From an uncultured cyanobacterium (GTDB lineage: Bacteria > Cyanobacteriota > Cyanobacteriia > Cyanobacteriales > CAWUOF01), in assembly GCA_963744145.1 (NCBI GenBank), contig CAVUSO010000001.1, positions 320,001 through 384,000 of the forward strand: 64,000 bases of DNA, given 5' to 3'. How positions within the stretch are numbered: the first letter of the stretch is position 1; every line of letters starts with the position of its first letter. The notes under the pieces were generated by a model that saw nothing but the letters and a program-made list of their open reading frames with translations, did no database searches and was not told the origin of the DNA. Below, piece by piece: positions 47,992 to 61,547 of this stretch. Made by a program: the position numbers and the translations under genes.

Positions 47992-50439
47992 ATGAAAATC
48001 TGGCAAATAGTAGCATATTTAGAATTAGCCAACTTACTTGTCGCTCCCTCCGTACTAGCCCAAATAGTACTCGATCGCACCGTGGGAACTACCGTAACGC
48101 CAAATTTAACCATTAATGGGATATTGAGCGATCGCATCGATAACGGAACAATCCGAGGGAGCAACTTATTTCACAGCTTTCAAGAATTCAATATCGGGTC
48201 AGGACAGGGCGTATATTTTAGCAACCCAGCAGGAATCACCAACATTTTTAGCCGAATTACAGGTAATAATTCCTCTCAGATCAATGGCACCTTGGGAGTA
48301 TTAGGTAATGCTAATCTATACTTACTCAATCCCAACGGCATACTTTTTGGTCAGAATGCGCGACTTGACCTCAAAGGGTCATTTTTGGCGACCACCGCTA
48401 ATCAAATTAACTTCACCGATGGGACTGTTTTTAGTGCTACTCATCCTCAGACATCGACCTTGCTTACTATCAATGTGCCAGTTGGGTTGCAATTTGGCAG
48501 CAATCCGAGTCCCATTACTGTTCTAGGAATTGGGAATAATATCACTTTAACCTCAAGCTTGGGTGATTCCAGATTAAATATTGATATTGGTTCAAACGGT
48601 TTACAGGTACAACCTCAAAAAACCCTCGCGTTAGTTGGTGGGAATATAGCCCTAAACGGAGGGTTACTCTCTGCACCAGGAGGACAAATTGATTTAGGAA
48701 GCGTCACCGGAGGAATCGTCGCTCTCAATCCAAACCCTCAAGGATGGATATTAAGCTATGGAAGTGCTTCCAACTTTGGTAATATTAAAATGACCCAAAG
48801 AGCCTTAGCTTCTGTAGTTGAAAGCAATACAGGATTAAATTTAGGTGCTGTCCAAATCCAGGGAGAACAAGTTAACATCCAGGATGGCTCATTAGTAGCG
48901 GTACAAAATCAAAGCAATCAAACGGCAGGTGATATCAATATCAATGCTAAAGTGTCACTCCAGGTGATTGGTAAATCAGCAGATTTTAGCAGTAGCACCG
49001 GTGTAGTGAATGAAACCATATCTACAGGTGCAGCAGGTAAGATTACAATTAATACTCCACAGTTAACTGTTACTCAAGGTGCCCAAATCTTCAACCGAAG
49101 CTTTAGTTTAGGAAAAGGTGGAGATATTATATTGAATATTGGGGATCAGTTACAGGTAGGTGATATTGCACCTAACGATCCACATAATACAACCAGTGCT
49201 ATTTTCACCAATAACTATGGTGCTGGTAATGGAGGCAATCTATTTCTCTCTGCTCCACATATATTAATCTTTAAAGGTGGTGGTATAGGAACTAGACCCT
49301 TTGGTCAAGGGAATGGTGGTAATGTGACCGTCAAGGCGGATACTATTCAAGTGACAAGTTTGGGCGCACCCAAGGGTTTATCTTTTAGTTTGCTAGCCAC
49401 TTCAACTTTCGGTCCAGGTCCTTCTGGTAATGAAACAATCGACACAAGCACCCTCTCAATCCAAGATGGTGGATTTGTATCAGCTTCTAGCTTTGGTACA
49501 GGAAATTCAGGTACTGTCACCGTTAATGCGTCTGAATTAATCGAGTTGAGTGGTATTAAAGACGCACAAAACCCAAGTTATATTGGCGCTGTAGTTCGCG
49601 GTTTTTTTGGTCTAACTACCTCTCCTGCCAATTCAGGCAATGTCATCATTAATACTCCTACTCTGAATATTAGCAATGGTGCAACGGTCTTTGTTCAAAA
49701 TCAAGGTCTTGGTAATGCTGGTAGTTTGAGTATTAATGCTGGCACCATCCAACTGGATCATGGGGGAAGCATCTCCGCATCTACAAGATCGGGGGAAGGG
49801 GGAAATATTAACCTTCAGGTTGAAGATTTGCAAATACGTCATGGTAGTTTCATTAGTGCACAAGCGGGTGGTAGTGGTAATGGTGGTAATGTCAGGATCA
49901 ATGCTCCTGTGATTGTGGGATTAGAAAACAGTGATATTACTGCCAATGCACTCAAAGGTCGGGGTGGTAATATTTCAATTGCTACCCAAGGCATTTTTCT
50001 TTCCCCCGATAGCAACATTACTGCTTCTTCCCAACTAGGTATTAGTGGTACTGTCAAGATCTCCAATCCTAATTTGCAACGGCAAAATGTTTTAGTTCTT
50101 TCTACTCCTAACTTTGCCAGTCAAGAGCAGGTGCTAACTAGCAATTGCTTGACTCGTCGCAACAGCAAACAGGGCACCTTTGTGGTTACAGGTAATGGTG
50201 GTTTACCAGAAACACCTGATCATAGCTTGATTCCCTATGATGTGATTCAGGTGAGGGCTGTGCATGAAGGCAGATCAATCGGCAATAGAAAACTACCACC
50301 AGCGATCGCGAATTCCTGGCATTCTGGAGACTTAATTCAAGAAGCAACCGGATTGGCGTTTACCTCAGATGGCAAAGCTACACTTGTTGCTAATCCAAAC
50401 CAGGCATTGTCCCCTGATTCTTTGATCTGTTTTCAATAA
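47992..50439 (+). CDS. Filamentous haemagglutinin/TPS protein, copy 4
   Basis: Same motifs as copy 2. Confidence 0.92.
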   Translation: MKIWQIVAYLELANLLVAPSVLAQIVLDRTVGTTVTPNLTINGILSDRIDNGTIRGSNLFHSFQEFNIGSGQGVYFSNPAGITNIFSRITGNNSSQINGTLGVLGNANLYLLNPNGILFGQNARLDLKGSFLATTANQINFTDGTVFSATHPQTSTLLTINVPVGLQFGSNPSPITVLGIGNNITLTSSLGDSRLNIDIGSNGLQVQPQKTLALVGGNIALNGGLLSAPGGQIDLGSVTGGIVALNPNPQGWILSYGSASNFGNIKMTQRALASVVESNTGLNLGAVQIQGEQVNIQDGSLVAVQNQSNQTAGDININAKVSLQVIGKSADFSSSTGVVNETISTGAAGKITINTPQLTVTQGAQIFNRSFSLGKGGDIILNIGDQLQVGDIAPNDPHNTTSAIFTNNYGAGNGGNLFLSAPHILIFKGGGIGTRPFGQGNGGNVTVKADTIQVTSLGAPKGLSFSLLATSTFGPGPSGNETIDTSTLSIQDGGFVSASSFGTGNSGTVTVNASELIELSGIKDAQNPSYIGAVVRGFFGLTTSPANSGNVIINTPTLNISNGATVFVQNQGLGNAGSLSINAGTIQLDHGGSISASTRSGEGGNINLQVEDLQIRHGSFISAQAGGSGNGGNVRINAPVIVGLENSDITANALKGRGGNISIATQGIFLSPDSNITASSQLGISGTVKISNPNLQRQNVLVLSTPNFASQEQVLTSNCLTRRNSKQGTFVVTGNGGLPETPDHSLIPYDVIQVRAVHEGRSIGNRKLPPAIANSWHSGDLIQEATGLAFTSDGKATLVANPNQALSPDSLICFQ

Positions 50440-50485
50440 CTTAGAGTTTAGCTGAAACAAAAGCTGTATTTTTTGCTAAAAATTC

Positions 50486-52930
50486 ATGAAAATCTGGGAA
50501 ATAGTAGCATATTTGGGATTAAGCAACTTACTGGTCGCTCCCTCCGTACTAGGGCAAATCATACCCGATCGCACCGTAGGAACTACAGTAACACCAAATC
50601 TAACGATTAATGGGATATTGAGCGATCGCATTGATCACGGAACCATCCGAGGGAGCAACTTATTTCACAGTTTTCAAGAATTCAACATTGGAACGGGAAG
50701 GGGAGCTTATTTTACCAATCCAGCAGGAATCGTCAACATTTTTAGTCGGATTACAGGTAATAATTCTTCCCAGATCGATGGCACCTTGGGAGTGTTAGGT
50801 AATGCCAATCTATACTTACTCAATCCCAACGGCATACTTTTTGGTCAGAATGCACGACTTGATCTCAACGGGTCATTTCTAGCAACTACAGCGAATCAGA
50901 TTAACTTCACAGATGGGACTGTTTTTAGTGCTACCAATCCTCAGACATCTCCCTTACTCACCATTAGTGTACCAGTTGGTTTACAGTTTGGGAGCAACCC
51001 GGGTCCTATTACCGTTCTAGGGATCGGACAAAATATTAATTTAGGCTCCCCCCTTAGTCCTAAAAAATTGGATCTTAATATTGGTTCAACTGGATTACAG
51101 GTACAACCTCAAAAAACTCTAGTCTTAGTGGGTGGGAATCTAGCCCTAAATGGAGGGTTACTCTCTGCACCAGGAGGACGAATTGAGTTGGGGAGTGTGA
51201 TGGGAGGAACTGTTGCTCTTAATCCAAACCTGCAAGGGTGGACATTGAGTTATGGAAATGCTGACCACTTTGGCAATATTCAGATGACCCAAGGAGCTTT
51301 AGCTGCTGTAGTTGAAAGCAATACAGGGTTAAATGTAGGCGCTATCCAAATTCAGGGACAACAAGTCAACATCCAGGATGGTTCCTTAGTAGCGGTGCAA
51401 AATCAAGGTAACCAAACGGTCGGTGATATCAACATCAATGCTACAGAGTCACTCCATATTATTGGTAAATCAGCAGATTTTAGCACTCCCACTGCGGTAG
51501 TGGATGAAACCATATCTACAGGTACAGCAGGTAATATTACGATTAATACTCCACAATTGACTCTTGACCAAGGTGCCCAAGTCTACAGCCGAAGCTTTAG
51601 TTCAGGGAAAGGTGGTGACCTGATCCTAAACATTACAGATGAGTTGCAGGTAGGTGGTGTTGCCCCGCTCGATCCGCAGCAGATAGTCAGTTCTATCTTT
51701 ACCTATAACTATGAAGATGGTAACGGAGGTAATCTATTTATTTCCGCTCCACATATATTGATTTTTAATGGTGGTAATATAGGAGCTAGACCATTGGGTC
51801 AAGGAAATGGTGGTAATTTAACAGTCAAGGCAGATACTATTCAAGTGACAAGTGCAGGAGCGCCTCCTGGTATATTTTTTAGTGCGCTAACCGCTTCAAG
51901 CTTAGGTCAAGGTCATTCCGGTAATGAAACAATCGACACAAACACCCTCTCAATCCAAGATGGCGGAGTGGTGTCAGCTTCTAGCTTTGGTACAGGAAAT
52001 TCAGGTACTGTCACCATCAATGCGTCTGAATTAGTTGAGTTGAGTGGAACTAAAGACGCACTCCCAAGTTATATTGGTGCTGTAGTTCGCAGTTTTTTTG
52101 GTCAAACTACCTCTCCTGCTAATTCAGGTAATATCATAATTAATACTCCTACTCTGAATATTAGCAATGGTGCAACAGTCTTTGTTCAAAACCAAGGTCT
52201 TGGTAATGCGGGTAGTTTGAGTATTAATGCTGGCACAATCCAACTTGATCATGGGGGAAGCATCTCCGCATCTACACAATCAGGGGAAGGGGGAAATATT
52301 AACCTCCAGGTTCAAGATTTGCAGATGCGTCATGGTAGTTTCATTAGTGCAGAAGCGGGTGGTAGTGGTAATGGCGGTAATATTAATATCAATGCTTCTG
52401 TGATTGGGGGATTAGAAAACAGTGATATTACTGCCAATGCAGTCAACGGTCGGGGTGGTAATATTTTAATTGAGAGCCAAGGTATTTTTCTTTCGACCGA
52501 TAGCAACATTACTGCTTCTTCCCAACTAGGGATTAGTGGTACTATTCATGTATCTAACCCTAACTTACAACGGCAAAATGTTGTAGTTCTTTCTACCTCT
52601 AATTTTTCCAACCAAGAACAGGTATTAGCTAGCAATTGTTTGACTCGTCGCAACAGTCAACAGGGAACTTTTGTAGTTACAGGTAACGGTGGTTTACCAG
52701 AAACACCTGATCATAGCTTGATTCCCTATGATGTACTTCAGGTGAGAGCTGTGCATGAAGGCAGATCAATCGGCAATAGAAAACTACCACAAGCGATCGC
52801 TAATTCCTGGCATTCTAGAGACTTAATTCAAGAAGCAACCGGATTTGCGTTTACCTCAGATGGCAAAGTTACACTTGTCGCTCATCCAAACCAGGTATCA
52901 ACCCCGGATTCTTTGATCTGTTTTTGGTAA
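50486..52930 (+). CDS. Filamentous haemagglutinin/TPS protein, copy 5
   Basis: Same motifs as copy 2. Confidence 0.92.
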   Translation: MKIWEIVAYLGLSNLLVAPSVLGQIIPDRTVGTTVTPNLTINGILSDRIDHGTIRGSNLFHSFQEFNIGTGRGAYFTNPAGIVNIFSRITGNNSSQIDGTLGVLGNANLYLLNPNGILFGQNARLDLNGSFLATTANQINFTDGTVFSATNPQTSPLLTISVPVGLQFGSNPGPITVLGIGQNINLGSPLSPKKLDLNIGSTGLQVQPQKTLVLVGGNLALNGGLLSAPGGRIELGSVMGGTVALNPNLQGWTLSYGNADHFGNIQMTQGALAAVVESNTGLNVGAIQIQGQQVNIQDGSLVAVQNQGNQTVGDININATESLHIIGKSADFSTPTAVVDETISTGTAGNITINTPQLTLDQGAQVYSRSFSSGKGGDLILNITDELQVGGVAPLDPQQIVSSIFTYNYEDGNGGNLFISAPHILIFNGGNIGARPLGQGNGGNLTVKADTIQVTSAGAPPGIFFSALTASSLGQGHSGNETIDTNTLSIQDGGVVSASSFGTGNSGTVTINASELVELSGTKDALPSYIGAVVRSFFGQTTSPANSGNIIINTPTLNISNGATVFVQNQGLGNAGSLSINAGTIQLDHGGSISASTQSGEGGNINLQVQDLQMRHGSFISAEAGGSGNGGNININASVIGGLENSDITANAVNGRGGNILIESQGIFLSTDSNITASSQLGISGTIHVSNPNLQRQNVVVLSTSNFSNQEQVLASNCLTRRNSQQGTFVVTGNGGLPETPDHSLIPYDVLQVRAVHEGRSIGNRKLPQAIANSWHSRDLIQEATGFAFTSDGKVTLVAHPNQVSTPDSLICFW

Positions 52931-56005: not shown

Positions 56006-56620
56006 CTAGTAACTAATTTCACTATCAACAAAGTCAATATTTTCGTACAGGAGCGAGAGGGGAAATTTTAGGTCTATACTGGTGATGTGAATTAATGGAT
56101 CGTTTTGAGCAAATTCGGTCGGCTCGATCGCTATTGGTGTATATTGCCAAACCTGATCTCTACGGTTTTGATAAATCTCAATTTTGGGGTAATCTGGAGT
56201 AATGAGAATATAGGTTTGGAGGGTATCAAGAAGCATATAATTTTGTTGTTTAATGTTGCGATCGCGCATTTCAGTAGATGGAGAAATTACTTCAGCAATC
56301 AAGCAGGGATATTGCAAAAAATCCCGAGCATTGCGATCGCGATCGTCACAACTAACCACTACATCGGGATAGTAATATTTGCCTTTTGGTATGCTAACTT
56401 TTGCATCATTGACAGCAACTTTGCAACCTTTACCGCGTAGATGAGGAATTAGAATTGCGGAAAAGTTTGCTGGAATTTGGCTGTGAGGAACAGTTCCACC
56501 TGTCATGGCAATAATTTTGCCGTTTTCATACTCATATCTAATATCTTGCTCAGATTCCCAAGCGAGATATTCTGCGGGTGACATGGTGATCGGATGAACG
56601 CTTTGTGTTTGGGCAATCAT
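56006..56620 (-). CDS. Uma2-family (DUF820) endonuclease
   Basis: EYLAWE..YEYENG.IIAMTGGT..H, YYPDVVV, IAEVISPST..DR..K. Confidence 0.9.
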   Translation of the reverse strand: MIAQTQSVHPITMSPAEYLAWESEQDIRYEYENGKIIAMTGGTVPHSQIPANFSAILIPHLRGKGCKVAVNDAKVSIPKGKYYYPDVVVSCDDRDRNARDFLQYPCLIAEVISPSTEMRDRNIKQQNYMLLDTLQTYILITPDYPKIEIYQNRRDQVWQYTPIAIEPTEFAQNDPLIHITSIDLKFPLSLLYENIDFVDSEISY

Positions 56621-56711
56621 GAAATTAACCTCCTCAATTTACAATACTAAACTTTTTTTATAAACTAGTAATCTATCAACCCAAGTTTCTCCTGTATTGG
56701 GAATAACTAAT

Positions 56712-57305
56712 TTAGCGATCGGCAAAGTTAATATTTTCGTACAGGAGCGAGAGGGGAAATTTTAGGTCTATACTGGTGATGTGAATTAATGGATCGTTTT
56801 GAGCAAATTCGGTCGGCTCGATCGCTATTGGTGTATATTGCCAAACCTGATCTATACAGCGTTGGTAAATCTCTATTATAGGAGCATCTGGAGTAATGAT
56901 AATATAGGTTTGGAGGGTATCAATAAACAGATAATTTTGTTGTTTAATGCTGCGATCGCGTATTTCAGTAGATGGAGAAATTACTTCGGCAATCAAGCAA
57001 GGATATTGCAAAAAGTCCTGGGCATTGCGATCGCGATCGTCACAACTAACAACTACATCAGGATAATAATATACTCCGGTTTTTGTCATCAGTTTAGCAT
57101 CGCTACCGAGAATGCGATATCCTTTACCGCGCAAATGATTTCTCAATAAGGAAATAAACATCAGAGTAATTTCATTGTGATTCAGCGTTCCTCCTGTCAT
57201 TTCAATAATTTCTCCATGTTCGTACTCATATTTGCCATCCTGTTGTGTTTCCCACAGCAAATATTCTTCGGGAGACATAACCTCAGTTTTTACTATAGCA
57301 ACCAT
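56712..57305 (-). CDS. Uma2-family endonuclease (tandem paralog)
   Basis: Same motifs; C-terminal half almost identical to 56006..56620. Confidence 0.9.
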   Translation of the reverse strand: MVAIVKTEVMSPEEYLLWETQQDGKYEYEHGEIIEMTGGTLNHNEITLMFISLLRNHLRGKGYRILGSDAKLMTKTGVYYYPDVVVSCDDRDRNAQDFLQYPCLIAEVISPSTEIRDRSIKQQNYLFIDTLQTYIIITPDAPIIEIYQRCIDQVWQYTPIAIEPTEFAQNDPLIHITSIDLKFPLSLLYENINFADR

Positions 57306-57708: not shown

Positions 57709-58134
57709 TTAAGAGTTAGGGTCATCACTTCCCCAGATTGTCTGAATAACAGACAGCGCTCTAATTTTGCGATCTTTTGTTACTAAAGGCAAACCGAGAT
57801 ATAGAGCGGTCGCTGCAATAATGCGATCGCCCATTTCGGGAACCGTCAACCGAGGAATTTTAGCTAAAGTCCTAGCCACCAAAACATCCACTGGTATAAC
57901 TATTAACCCAACATCAGGATCAGCTAGGTATTGCACAAGCTGTTCTAAAGCAACTTCAGGAATCCTGTTTTTCTCAACTAGATAGGTTATTTCTACCATA
58001 GAGATTGCTGACAGGTAAATCGGATACCCATTATTAACCGCACTATTCAGAGCGATCGCAGCATCCAGTGATAATTTCTCTGGACTTTGGAAATACTAGA
58101 TAATCGCATGAGTATCAGCAACAACAGCACTCAT
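57709..58134 (-). pseudogene. PIN-domain (VapC-like) toxin with a nonsense codon at position 13
   Basis: MSAVVADTHAII*YFQSPEKLS...SAISMVEI...DRIIAATA..LVTKD; TAG at 58096-58098. Confidence 0.85.
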
Positions 58135-58370
58135 AGTTCAATATCCTTGGGAAAATTTCCCCACATCTCACGTCTTGTTTCAGCAAGTTCTTCTTCAGTA
58201 ATATTTATATCTAAATGTGCCCATATTCCTTCTAAACTCTTCCGAGGTCGTTTAACATTAATTCTAGTTTTCAAAAACTCCGCAAAATCCAAAAGTTCCT
58301 GTTGTTTTTCTGGTGGCAATACTTCTAATATTTCAACTACTGTCTGACTAATACTGGTAATCACAGTCAT
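58131..58370 (-). CDS. DUF2281-family antitoxin
   Basis: LPPEKQQELLDFAEFL..SLEGIWA..REMW; overlaps the PIN start; likely start MTVITS at 58370. Confidence 0.8.
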   Translation of the reverse strand: MTVITSISQTVVEILEVLPPEKQQELLDFAEFLKTRINVKRPRKSLEGIWAHLDINITEEELAETRREMWGNFPKDIEL

Positions 58371-58529
58371 TTTGTTAATCCTCCTTGGCTGATCAAATTT
58401 GATTTGCCCCAATTTGTTAATCATCAATCGAGGGAACAGGCGAGATATCCATTCCTTATTTAGATTGTAGCAACAAATCTAAATTTTCACCATTTAAGAT
58501 CCCAACCAGAATACTCATTAATTCTCTGA

Positions 58530-59012
58530 GATCATCAGGAACACGGTATAAATGCAAATCTTGCACTACAAAGTGAAAGAAATATAGATTACGCTCCTCT
58601 ACGTGAATTATTAGCTGCTGGTAAATGGAAAGATGCTGATTGGAAAACTTATGAGCTTGTACTTAAAGCTGCTAATCGTGAAAAAGAAAGATATCTCACT
58701 GGTGATGATTGGGTAAAATTTCCCTGTAAATATCTTCGCACTATAGATCAGTTATGGGTAAAATATTCTGATGGTCGTTTTGGTTTCAGCGTCCAAAAAC
58801 AAATATGGGAGAGTAAGGAAATTGGAGGATATCCCAAGGCTGGAAGTGCGATCAAGCGCAAATTGGGTGATAAAGTAGGGTGGAGAAAAGGAGGCAATTG
58901 GTTGAGCTATGATGACCTAACTTTTAACACCTCGGCTCCCGTGGGCCACCTTCCGTTGTTGGGGGGTTGGTGGGTTTGGGGGGGGTCTCTTCTCTCGCGC
59001 AAAGACTTGTAA
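58530..59012 (+). pseudogene. Start-less GUN4-like domain cassette (160 open codons), missed by the ORF track
   Basis: Frame is open from the TGA at 58527 to the TAA at 59010: ..LQSERNIDYAPLRELLAAGKWKDAD..IDQLWVKYSDGRFGFSVQKQIW..GHLPLLGGWWVWGGSLLSRKDL*; no in-frame ATG. Confidence 0.88.
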
Positions 59013-59116
59013 CCTGTAAGATATAACAATTTCAGGCCATTGTCAAGCTTATTTTTGGTACTAATTTCTACGCAAACATCGGCTTTTTCCAAACTCAATA
59101 CCTGGCACTGACCTAG
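58993..59116 (+). repeat. Conserved GUN4 3' element, copy 4
   Basis: TCTCGCGCAAAGACTTGTAACCTGTAAGATATAACAATTTCAGGCCATTGTCAAGCTTATTTTTGGTACTAATTTCTACGCAAACATC..AACTCAATACCTGGCAC. Confidence 0.88.
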
Positions 59117-59399
59117 CAACTGGCACGAGTCGTCCGGCGGGAGTCCGTCTAGTCCGTCTGATGTTAAAATAAAAAATCGCAAGATTAGGCCAGGTGAATA
59201 GAACAACTTAAACTAAGAATTATTAAAAAACTGTGCAGCGACTTTTGGGTCATAGCAATTAGCCATCACAAACTTTTCAGCCACTTGATGAATTTCAGAG
59301 TTAGTCGGTTCCGATCGCATTTTTCCCAGATTACCCATTAGAATAATAGCTTTCGCGATCGGACTTCACCGTTAAGGATATTTTGGGGATATCGGAATA

Positions 59400-59592
59400 G
59401 AAGAAGGGCGAAGCATTCGGATATAATATTAATCGATGTAAGTGATTAATTATCGCCCGAATGCTTCGCCCCTACATCCTATTGATCTGCAAGAAGAAGA
59501 AGGGCGAAGCATTCAGATATAATATTAACCGCCCTTCGACTACGCTCAGGGTAAAATGTAAGTGATAAATTTTCGCCCAAATGCTTCGCCCC
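59400..59592. repeat. Two tandem REP-like palindromes, one empty and one with a 24-nt insertion
   Basis: GAAGGGCGAAGCATTC...ATGCTTCGCCCC at 59400-59475 and 59496-59592. Confidence 0.85.
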
Positions 59593-59693: not shown

Positions 59694-61547
59694 ATGCCAT
59701 ATTCCAAAAACCCAGAACGTATACCTACTATTGTTGAAGCACTAGAAAATCAATCCGTCGAACAATTAAAAAAACTGATCACTTATTTACCAACCACTCA
59801 AAAGGTTTCGCGTAAAGCTGAATTGGTTAATCTTGTTTCTAATTATTTGAATAATGAAACTAGCTTATACCAACTTTGGCAAAAACTTGATCAACTTCAA
59901 CAAGCAGCAGTAGCTGAAGTTGTTTATTCGTCACAAACCCAGTTTGATGCAATTAAGTTTAAGGCTAAATACAGACAATTACCTAATTTTGATAATTCCG
60001 ATCGATATAACTATAATAGTCAGCCCTCTCTACTCAGGTTATTCTTCTATAGCTATAACATTATTCCAGATGAGATGAAACTACTATTGAAAAAATTTGT
60101 TCCTCGTCCAGTCGATGTTAAACTCATCAGTGTTTCTGAACTTCCTCCCTTCATTAATCAGCGATCGGAAGAATATAATTCTACTACCAAACAATACGAG
60201 CAAAAAGTAACAGAAGTAACCTTAGTGCAACGAGAAATGGAACGTTCTGCACAACAGGATTTGATGGCAATATTGCGTTTAATTAATGCTGGTAAACTAA
60301 CCGTTAGCGATAAGACAAATCATCCTACCGCAGCTACAGTTAAAGCAATTACTGCTGTTCTTTCTGGTGGTGATTATTATATTGATAAAGAACCAGAAGA
60401 GCGTCCACCTTATCAAGAACCAATTGGTCCAATTAGAGCTTTTGCTTGGTCGTTAATTCTCCAAGCAGCAGGTTTAGCAGAATTAAGTGAAAAAAAGTTA
60501 CGTTTGACTAAAGCAGGTCAAAAAGCACTGGTTGATCCACCTGAAAAAACTCTCAAGCTAGCTTGGGAAAAATGGGTAAATAATAAAACTTTTGACGAAT
60601 TGCGTCGGATTGAAACAATTAAAGGACAAACAGGTAAGGGGAAACAAGGTTTAACTGTAACTAGCGAACGGAGACAAGCGATCGCGATTATTTTGAGAGA
60701 TTCGACCGTCAATTCTTGGGTAGAGGTGAATGATTTTTTGCGCTATCTGCTAGCGGTAGGATATAATTTTCAGATCACAAGGAATATAGAAAGTCTGTAT
60801 ATTTGTGATGCTCATTACGGTACTCTTTATGATCCAGATGCTGCTTGGAATATTCTCCAAGGTCGCTATATTCTCTGTCTGTTATTCGAGTATGCAGCTA
60901 CATTGGGAATGCTAGATGTTGCTTATGTTTCTCCGTCTGGTGCGCGTTATGATTATCAGGATTTCTGGGGAGCAGAGGAACTAGAATTTTTCAGTCGCTA
61001 TGATGGTTTGATGTATTTTCGATTAACTCCTTTGGGTGCTTACTGTTTGGGAGTTACTAATAATTATCAACCCGCACCAATAGAAGTACGTCCAGTTTTA
61101 CAGGTATTACCAAATTTGGAAATTACCCCGATCGCAGAGCCGTTAACTGGTGCAGATATGTTACTTTTAGATATCTATACTGAGAAAGTTTCTGATACTA
61201 CTTGGAAATTGCAGGATGGTAAATTGTTGAATGCGATCGCGGAAGGTAATAATATCTCAGTATTCCAAGAGTTTATTCAAGCTAAAAGTGGTAATCTTTT
61301 ACCAGAAACAGCGAGACAGTTTATAGCTGATATTAAAGCACGTAGTCACAGTTTAAAAGATAAAGGGACTGCTCGCATAATTGAGTGTAAAGATGCAGAT
61401 TTAGCTAGGTTAATTGCCAATAATCCACAAACTAAACCTTATTGTATGTTATTAGGAGAGCGTTGTTTAGTTGTCCCAACTACTTCTGAAATTAAGTTTC
61501 ACGATAATTTGATCAAATTAGGTTATAGCTTAGTCCGGTTTAGTTAA
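59694..61547 (+). CDS. Hypothetical protein (617 aa), probable C-terminal helicase-associated (XPB N-terminal-like) domain
   Basis: Long ORF; RLTPLG..LQVLPNLEI..F.QA.SG..LP pattern; domain call is from recall only. Confidence 0.55.
   Translation: MPYSKNPERIPTIVEALENQSVEQLKKLITYLPTTQKVSRKAELVNLVSNYLNNETSLYQLWQKLDQLQQAAVAEVVYSSQTQFDAIKFKAKYRQLPNFDNSDRYNYNSQPSLLRLFFYSYNIIPDEMKLLLKKFVPRPVDVKLISVSELPPFINQRSEEYNSTTKQYEQKVTEVTLVQREMERSAQQDLMAILRLINAGKLTVSDKTNHPTAATVKAITAVLSGGDYYIDKEPEERPPYQEPIGPIRAFAWSLILQAAGLAELSEKKLRLTKAGQKALVDPPEKTLKLAWEKWVNNKTFDELRRIETIKGQTGKGKQGLTVTSERRQAIAIILRDSTVNSWVEVNDFLRYLLAVGYNFQITRNIESLYICDAHYGTLYDPDAAWNILQGRYILCLLFEYAATLGMLDVAYVSPSGARYDYQDFWGAEELEFFSRYDGLMYFRLTPLGAYCLGVTNNYQPAPIEVRPVLQVLPNLEITPIAEPLTGADMLLLDIYTEKVSDTTWKLQDGKLLNAIAEGNNISVFQEFIQAKSGNLLPETARQFIADIKARSHSLKDKGTARIIECKDADLARLIANNPQTKPYCMLLGERCLVVPTTSEIKFHDNLIKLGYSLVRFS

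Follow-up and report, generated by a model that had tools for sequence, protein, structure and literature searches.

To our knowledge, only a few ways are known by which bacteria diversify one region of a gene, and the origin of the core diversity of the prochlorosins has, as far as we know, stayed open, the proposal of a RAYT enzyme having stalled for want of a recognition site. In marine picocyanobacteria, procA faces tnpA-REP, and a diversification by the encoded enzyme has been proposed (Laurenceau et al., bioRxiv 10.1101/2020.03.09.984088). The same preprint states that strong evidence on causation is lacking in either direction and calls the procA-RAYT association unique to marine picocyanobacteria, and its main text contains neither GUN4 nor the box TACCTGGCAC described below (bioRxiv 10.1101/2020.03.09.984088). 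A second related system is the REPtron of E. coli (4ER8), which resembles the modules described here in its HUH and Tyr motifs and its fold, and whose C|T cleavage would fit the CT-rich edge of these modules, as far as the portions of the sources used here go (PMC8266576, PMC6006769). Cyanobacterial DGRs, as covered in the consulted parts of two papers, place a variable C-terminus on kinase, caspase or TIR signalling proteins, as is found here, and in these same parts GUN4 is named only as a fused or effector domain (PMC7517822, PMC7159879). In the literature searched, with most subscription journals lying outside it, no paper has been found that joins GUN4 to a RAYT or to a variable tip.

The copy of interest lies in the window, i.e., the whole analysed stretch of 64,000 nucleotides from an uncultured cyanobacterium. 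Its frame (58530-59012) runs over 160 codons with no stop and no ATG, and the Pfam profile PF05419 (GUN4) matches it at residues 14-147 with an E of 1.7e-41, so that the description of an intact GUN4 frame without stop, ATG or N-terminal effector, given by a first-pass annotation made from the letters alone, has been borne out. Upstream of 58572 the effector domain, the start codon and the promoter are all missing. The domain fold is shared by sequence with canonical GUN4 (1Y6I, 1Z3X), with 130 residues aligned (E 7e-19 for 1z3x and 6e-16 for 1y6i), while a single-sequence fold prediction of the remnant has given no usable model (pLDDT 42). Unlike canonical GUN4, the window copy carries a variable tip in place of the Arg214 loop, lacks the N-terminal helical region and belongs to a family of about 50 paralogs; 54 tblastn matches to its domain have been obtained in the source genome. 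We consider, with a probability of about 60%, that this start-less copy is a recent-looking pseudogene remnant of a GUN4-RAYT module, the tips of which are rewritten by a RAYT-linked mechanism. The left part of the locus is composed as follows:

58456..58571, minus strand: last 37 codons of an unrelated gene, 83% identical in nucleotides over 88 bases to locus L008 of genome G021
58570..58572, no strand: left breakpoint 58571/58572, with 2 bases common to both sides
58572..58955, plus strand: GUN4 domain body in open frame (PF05419), ending in the G-H-L-P codons 58944-58955

The gene at the G021 locus (217 residues) ends in the same way as the minus-strand segment (87% amino acid identity over 30 residues), and this relative of the unrelated gene shows a weak HSDR_N_2 match below cut-off. 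Homology of paralogs to the GUN4 copy begins at 58570. A contig from a read set of a second study (X3) follows 58473-58571 with 0 differences, and the breakpoint has been placed at 58571|58572 because X3 leaves the window there and runs on as the whole, unbroken unrelated gene. Another contig (X1), which may come from the source sample of the window, shows 0 differences over 58389-58597, thus reaching only 26 nt past the joint; no identical piece of X1 across the tip has been found among the matches listed, and X4 gives no cover. Of the unrelated gene, the lost 5′ portion has no counterpart of high identity elsewhere in the genome, the best other match being 49%. By one deletion, the GUN4 body has been joined to the 3′ end of the unrelated gene under removal of the 5′ parts of both genes. 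The positions given by the first-pass annotation are right, with an ATA in frame at 58548 and an ATG out of frame at 58552 (the latter opens a peptide of only 11 codons), but codons 1-14 of the frame are not GUN4 DNA at all: they are the antisense of the end of the other gene, and both triplets fall on its D-L-H-L-Y codons. The ATG might be put down to a shift of the frame by one base or to an error of assembly, but this has been rejected, as the DNA is that of the other gene and recurs in X1 and X3 without a single difference. It is scarcely credible to us that translation begins at a non-canonical codon (ATA 58548 or 58584) and yields a small GUN4 protein by itself: the frame is intact and stand-alone GUN4 genes with an ATG are present elsewhere in the source genome, but ATA 58548 lies in DNA whose opposite strand codes for the end of another gene, and no promoter-like site has been seen on the plus strand in 58300-58570, admittedly a weak test. 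Further to the left, a DUF2281 antitoxin and PIN toxin pair (57709-58427, minus strand) adjoins the breakpoint, and two Uma2 genes stand in tandem at 56006-57305.

At the right end, a second truncated gene is met, together with its own breakpoint:

59213..59311, minus strand: last ~32 codons of a convergent RAYT-type (Y1 HUH) nuclease gene
59312..59380, minus strand: region kept upstream of the deleted RAYT start, with the right breakpoint 59311|59312 at a partial HIP1 site
59406..59475, minus strand: REP-like hairpin with GTAG at its foot (-22.5 kcal/mol, z -6.9)

The first of these segments matches the C-termini of convergent genes at two other loci (L009, L015), and five other GUN4 ends in the genome are followed by similar RAYT C-terminal stubs. 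One contig of depth 2.4 (X2) matches 59312-59369 with 2 differences, and its loose end reads, on the minus strand and 11 nt beyond the joint, M-S-R-P-P-R, the RAYT start peptide. As this contig reads into the RAYT start, a RAYT has stood here, and a second deletion has taken it from the start codon to about residue 220. HIP1-type 7-mers are very common (~13,000 in the chromosome), and each of the two intact alleles (X2, X3) is represented by one low-depth contig, and the two need not stem from the same strain; we nevertheless hold both deletion breakpoints with high confidence. Since the 5′ end of GUN4 and the RAYT have both been lost, the copy is best described as the doubly deleted remnant of a module in which a gene made up of effector, GUN4, tip and tail converges on a RAYT gene. 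The lost effector was probably a Ser/Thr kinase; the closest paralog, at C1:277794-279404 of the same genome, is a Ser/Thr kinase-GUN4 fusion with a body 83% identical in nucleotides. A recently truncated gene had already been suggested for this copy, and both the breakpoint with an unrelated gene and the slight decay of the GUN4 body, with 1 change at 30 conserved columns and thus within the range of intact copies, speak for that suggestion.

Regarding the enzyme, the window retains only ~32 codons without the HUH/Tyr nuclease, and its properties have been taken from intact relatives, in which the HUH and Tyr motifs are invariant (N-H-V-H and Y-I-H-x-N-P). One of these (L018) matches PF01797 with an E of 6e-17, and the top fold match of the intact relative is the E. 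coli TnpA-REP 4ER8. In contrast to the REPtron enzyme, the GUN4-facing RAYT scores below the NCBIfam RAYT cut-off (68 vs 80 bits), carries a C-terminal extension of ~100 residues and is accompanied by an unstructured cis element, and its apparent substrate is the end of a coding gene. A fold search with the extension has returned no polymerase-like match, only weak RRM-fold ones to Thg1. The REPtron acts on GTAG-tagged REPs, and a GTAG-footed hairpin, which may or may not be cognate to this RAYT and the 19-nt foot of which occurs in ~250 copies in the chromosome, adjoins the window copy. To the right of the hairpins, a 617-aa ORF (59694-61547, plus strand) has no Pfam or NCBIfam match; at 47992-52930 (plus strand) lie two tandem proteins of ~815 aa, which we take to be secreted and filamentous-haemagglutinin-like.

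The other interpretation offered for the copy, a silent donor cassette, i.e., a promoterless GUN4-tip-tail unit kept for recombination into kinase or caspase genes, is very improbable in the light of these breakpoints. The frame is open and hardly changed at conserved columns, the body shares an exact match of 48 nt with another locus, the tip resembles that of one expressed paralog, and, among the genome's 21 type-A tails, the copy has one of the 5 that keep full spacing and box, points that speak for a donor. However, its 5′ end has been fused to the stump of an unrelated gene whose whole form is found in X3, its RAYT partner is deleted as well, and its nearest paralog is only 83% identical. 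Of the genome's 46 parsed GUN4 ends, 30 carry the tail (16/46 lack it by a pattern that has missed some real tails), and the window copy is the only whole but start-less domain among these 30, with no array; four other tail-bearing copies are broken by frameshift or insertion. The genome-wide count of orphan cassettes, which the first-pass annotation had put forward as a check, thus comes to 1/30. Sought at expressed loci, the window tip has been found as no identical copy, only as a 20/24 likeness at the one paralog with the 83%-identical body. Elsewhere, 73 of 75 intact modules have an ATG before the GUN4 domain, one runs off its contig, and the sole doubtful case without an upstream ATG (L076) looks like a frameshifted fusion. 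An intact ortholog of the window copy has not been found in 40 relatives, pattern scans of metagenomes have given 0 matches, and a search for a longer protein has reached 76% identity at best, with a sequence from the same genome.

These modules have been collected with an intact RAYT that itself sits beside GUN4, by taking the best 80 of its 356 relatives. Of these best 80, 76 RAYT loci have 800 nt or more of downstream sequence, and a convergent GUN4 lies within 1.5 kb at 75 of the 76, a proportion that overstates the link for the RAYT subfamily, as the query sits beside GUN4 itself. No third gene is common to the module loci. A scan of 251 genomes of the phylum finds the tail pattern in 50 of them, and the reversed control gives 0 matches. 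A RAYT is encoded in 20 of these 50 tail-bearing genomes, compared to 6 of 30 chosen large genomes lacking the tail; the link between RAYT and tail across genomes is accordingly weak, and as only 20/50 retain the RAYT, tails often outlast the enzyme. In the source genome, the only near-complete RAYT of the subfamily (L105, C1:6187900-6189600; 252 aa, with a short insertion and an early stop) faces an ORF of 54 aa whose end resembles a double-glycine leader and which lies next to a putative peptide exporter, a variant of the box standing between them; the 54-aa peptide has no Pfam or NCBIfam match. At C1:7134700-7135800 (L106), the C-terminal stub of a RAYT faces a peptide ORF of double-glycine type (55 aa, Cys-rich), followed by C/A-rich DNA on the sense strand, a skew opposite to that of the GUN4 tips.

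Downstream of the GUN4 body, the window copy shows a variable tip and a tail:

58956..58985, plus strand: variable tip LLGGWWVWGG, 30 nt of G and T only, in place of the canonical GUN4 porphyrin-binding loop
58986..59026, plus strand: constant head that ends in every frame (stops at 59010, 59017 and 59024), with a CT-rich 5′ edge
58987..59108, plus strand: spacer of fixed length plus box TACCTGGCAC, the box at 59099-59108

Tips have been parsed at 58 of the 75 modules (16 loci unparsed, 1 with an N gap), and all three reading frames of the ending are used there, in 27, 17 and 14 cases. The distance from head to box is 112-113 nt at 51 of these 58 loci, although the spacer sequences show only 48% identity to one another, and the window copy shows an equal distance; its tail had been called consensus-like, and it has indeed kept the three-frame ending and the spacing of the family. 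The box has been found at 72 of 77 loci of the first RAYT set and at 0/77 on the opposite strand. Neither a conserved RNA fold on either strand of the tail nor a significant helical periodicity of the spacer (top period ~11 nt, p 0.23) has been detected, and a search for an antisense promoter in the tail has given one 10/12 match and 2 sites against 3.8 expected, not conserved. At the junction, the unbroken constant part begins at T in 52 of 53 loci with the edge in the first six positions, and where the preceding C is lost, the base before it is random as well (8/16 vs 39/42, p 7e-4); three loci (L057, L079, L100) have been left out of alignment A4. According to the part of the source considered, the studied TnpA-REPs cleave C|T and join any 3′-OH to that T, the cleavage having been shown only for groups 2 and 3 (PMC8266576). 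The edge at T would fit such a cleavage and joining by analogy, and the motifs of the GUN4-facing RAYT fit subclass 2.1, which the table of a further source, seen in part, lists without REPs (PMC6006769). At five loci (L044, L062, L096, L102, L025) the head is partly duplicated at the junction, which may represent scars of re-joining or artefacts of assembly. Past the box, a second short variable stretch with GTCC/GTCT-like repeats is seen at 59109-59160 as well as at C1:3279495 and C1:4710525.

The tip of the window copy is extreme in its composition. The absence of adenine in the variable segment, pointed out earlier, extends over 52 nt (58949-59000), within which a run of 32 nt starting at 58955 consists of G and T only. 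The chromosome holds 26 G/T-only runs of at least 25 nt on both strands; 8 of them lie in parsed GUN4 tips, beyond what chance would give, and many of the others are simple repeats. The G-H-L-P of the window copy aligns to SynGUN4 205-208, and the loop that carries the porphyrin-binding Arg214 in canonical GUN4 (PMC2757182, as far as the consulted part of that source goes) is not kept, the tip standing instead. Across the 30 tips of the genome, G+T amounts to 0.76, 0.75 and 0.77 at codon positions 1, 2 and 3, and GGG makes up 66 of 150 Gly codons, compared to 15% genome-wide (p 7e-17). Protein selection alone fails this synonymous-site test as a cause and has been rejected; the G/T bias of the tips acts at the level of the DNA. 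Substitutions in the GUN4 bodies show no keto bias. Keto drift of a deamination type has been rejected as well, given that the bodies lack the bias and that the tips of four tandem repeats do not converge: these four, with bodies 91-95% identical, carry unrelated tips. In the 58 intact-module tips the base frequencies are G 0.46, T 0.33, A 0.12 and C 0.10, and stops are encountered 0 times in frame vs 26 and 30 times in the other two frames. The G+T content of tips beside intact RAYTs (median 0.82 vs 0.74) is not significantly higher (p 0.15). Variation of tips within a population has not been observed. A metagenome-assembled contig (L103) has a run of N exactly over the tip, between both anchors, which may reflect mixed tips or an assembly gap.

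No genomic template for the tips has been found: for 28 tips (2 of 30, longer than 130 nt, have been left out), the longest match is 15.0 nt vs 14.8 in shuffles, and the flanks likewise provide no template better than shuffles. For the window tip, a template repeat differing at adenines, the mark of a DGR, has not been found. Unlike DGRs, the GUN4 tips thus come without template repeat and linked RT, vary in length and frame, and sit on GUN4, which is no C-type lectin. That a reverse transcriptase writes the tips, be it of a DGR or as an untemplated, A/C-preferring Abi/DRT polymerase that makes the antisense strand, appears very improbable. It would account for the C/A-rich antisense of the tips, as AbiA makes almost only A/C DNA (PMC11077055, in the portion consulted), and the genome encodes Drt5, an RT linked to Cas1 and a broken DGR-like RT. 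Against it stand, besides the missing template region and the variable length in all frames, that no RT is common to the 80 module loci and that 6 of 50 tail-bearing genomes have no PF00078 match. As to the loci themselves, the Drt5 antiviral reverse transcriptase (L002, C1:3188812-3192273) is intact (NF041750, 659 bits), L001 is an RT beside cas1/cas2-like genes, and the broken DGR-like RT (L003) lies far from the window copy.

How tips change over time has been followed in ortholog pairs from public clusters, in which 4 of 117 members could not be parsed and pairs are not independent events. At body identities of at least 90%, the tip is shared or related in 114 of 122 distinct pairs, whereas at 80-90% tips are unrelated in 44 of 48. 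In two pairs (P0150/P0162, P0172/P0173), an all-or-none change of the tip together with a switch of frame has occurred at 98-99% body identity. As tips are stable among close orthologs and unrelated at 80-90%, replacement is episodic and not continuous; judged from these alignments, tips are replaced wholesale in rare events, without a steady hypermutation. The window tip agrees with that of its closest paralog in 20 of the first 24 bases (p 0.0005, ~0.015 after 29 comparisons; local-alignment p 0.058), the two differing by four G-T changes and an indel, which fits descent with point changes as well, and no identical copy of the tip exists at another locus of the genome. Because it resembles the paralog's tip and orthologous tips are mostly inherited unchanged, the window tip is probably inherited and not freshly made. 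The earlier idea that it displays the raw output of the diversifier has therefore held only in part: the bias is one of DNA and no template has been found, but the tip itself is probably not fresh.

The same turnover bears on a reading that accepts the remnant as described but dispenses with a dedicated diversifier. The RAYT would only mobilise or duplicate the module, tips would change by slippage and repair in G/T runs of a tolerant loop, and the three-frame ending would buffer these changes. This is unlikely in our view, yet it deserves serious weight. A slight homopolymer excess in tips (GG 1.18, TT 1.05, CC 1.98), the stability of tips among close orthologs, the four G-T changes and indel between window and paralog, and the 30 of 50 tail-bearing genomes that miss the RAYT would all agree with it. 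The tips, however, are non-repetitive with dinucleotides near independence, and all-or-none changes with frame switch at 98-99% body identity are hardly those of slippage, which in addition leaves unexplained the fixed spacing of 112-113 nt, the box shared with procA and the junction edge at T.

For the preferred reading, in which tips would be rewritten enzymatically, one may postulate the following course, to which we attach about even odds. The RAYT would recognise the box TACCTGGCAC and nick the sense strand 112 nt away, at the C|T step in the CT-rich head, its tyrosine holding the tail. The free 3′ end would then gain non-templated G/T-rich DNA of any length from some polymerase or from short oligonucleotides, after which the RAYT would rejoin the strand; a source of the G/T nucleotides has not been found. 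Owing to the three-frame ending, a tip of any length would give a protein, and selection would purge stop codons, the outcome being a new ligand-pocket loop on a presumed signalling or immune sensor. The tip of the window copy was probably made before the split from the kinase paralog at C1:277857.

The comparison with procA extends beyond the GUN4 modules. Full-length relatives of the GUN4-facing RAYT profile have been found in 16 of 121 genomes of a small-genome family (profile E 2e-91, 41-47% identity, no tree). Of eight small-genome loci, two face Nif11 precursors, four a barrel-like gene and two other short ORFs, and the box TACCTGGCAC is present within one mismatch and on the facing strand at 8/8; L113 and L115 have been left out of this RAYT comparison and box scan. 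At L108, L109, L110 and L112, the RAYT faces a gene whose end consists of a constant R-D-V-R-V-H/Q-D and, after it, a variable peptide of short length; at L109 this gene encodes 332 aa without a Pfam match. Going by these sequences, the facing gene may form a third target class, the term barrel-like being a guess at its fold. procA and the GUN4 modules are alike in having a convergent target and RAYT with conserved intergenic sequence and distance, RAYT C-terminal fragments facing targets, a 3′ end that varies and carries indels, a RAYT of one and the same subfamily and a TACCTGGCAC-like box. They differ in the target, which is a Nif11 lanthipeptide precursor in one case and a GUN4 domain, a putative sensor, fused to kinases or caspases in the other, and in the G/T-rich insert, the three-frame ending and the lack of a terminator hairpin in the tail of the GUN4 module. 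Since genes of the Nif11/procA type likewise have this box and a RAYT of this subfamily opposite them, the GUN4 tips are tied to the proposed procA-TnpA-REP diversifier. We propose that the GUN4-RAYT system is a variant of this RAYT-linked diversifier, itself a proposal; new in this work are the box, the spacing, the breakpoints, the junction geometry, the turnover of tips in jumps and the connection to procA loci, which has been tested.

More tentatively, and at somewhat less than even odds, one RAYT subfamily and one 10-bp box may constitute a general, RT-free diversifier of gene ends in cyanobacteria, in which the distance between nick and box would be fixed and non-templated DNA would enter, as at V(D)J junctions. 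Its targets would comprise the GUN4 ligand loop, the prochlorosin cores and the C-termini of the barrel-like family. The dead copy in the window shows that the system needs no silent donors. The shared box, the spacing of 112-113 nt and the predicted C|T nick provide a defined substrate for a test-tube assay. If the general diversifier exists, the window copy would be a fossil of it with its cis elements still whole, and RAYT enzymes would gain a function for their host.
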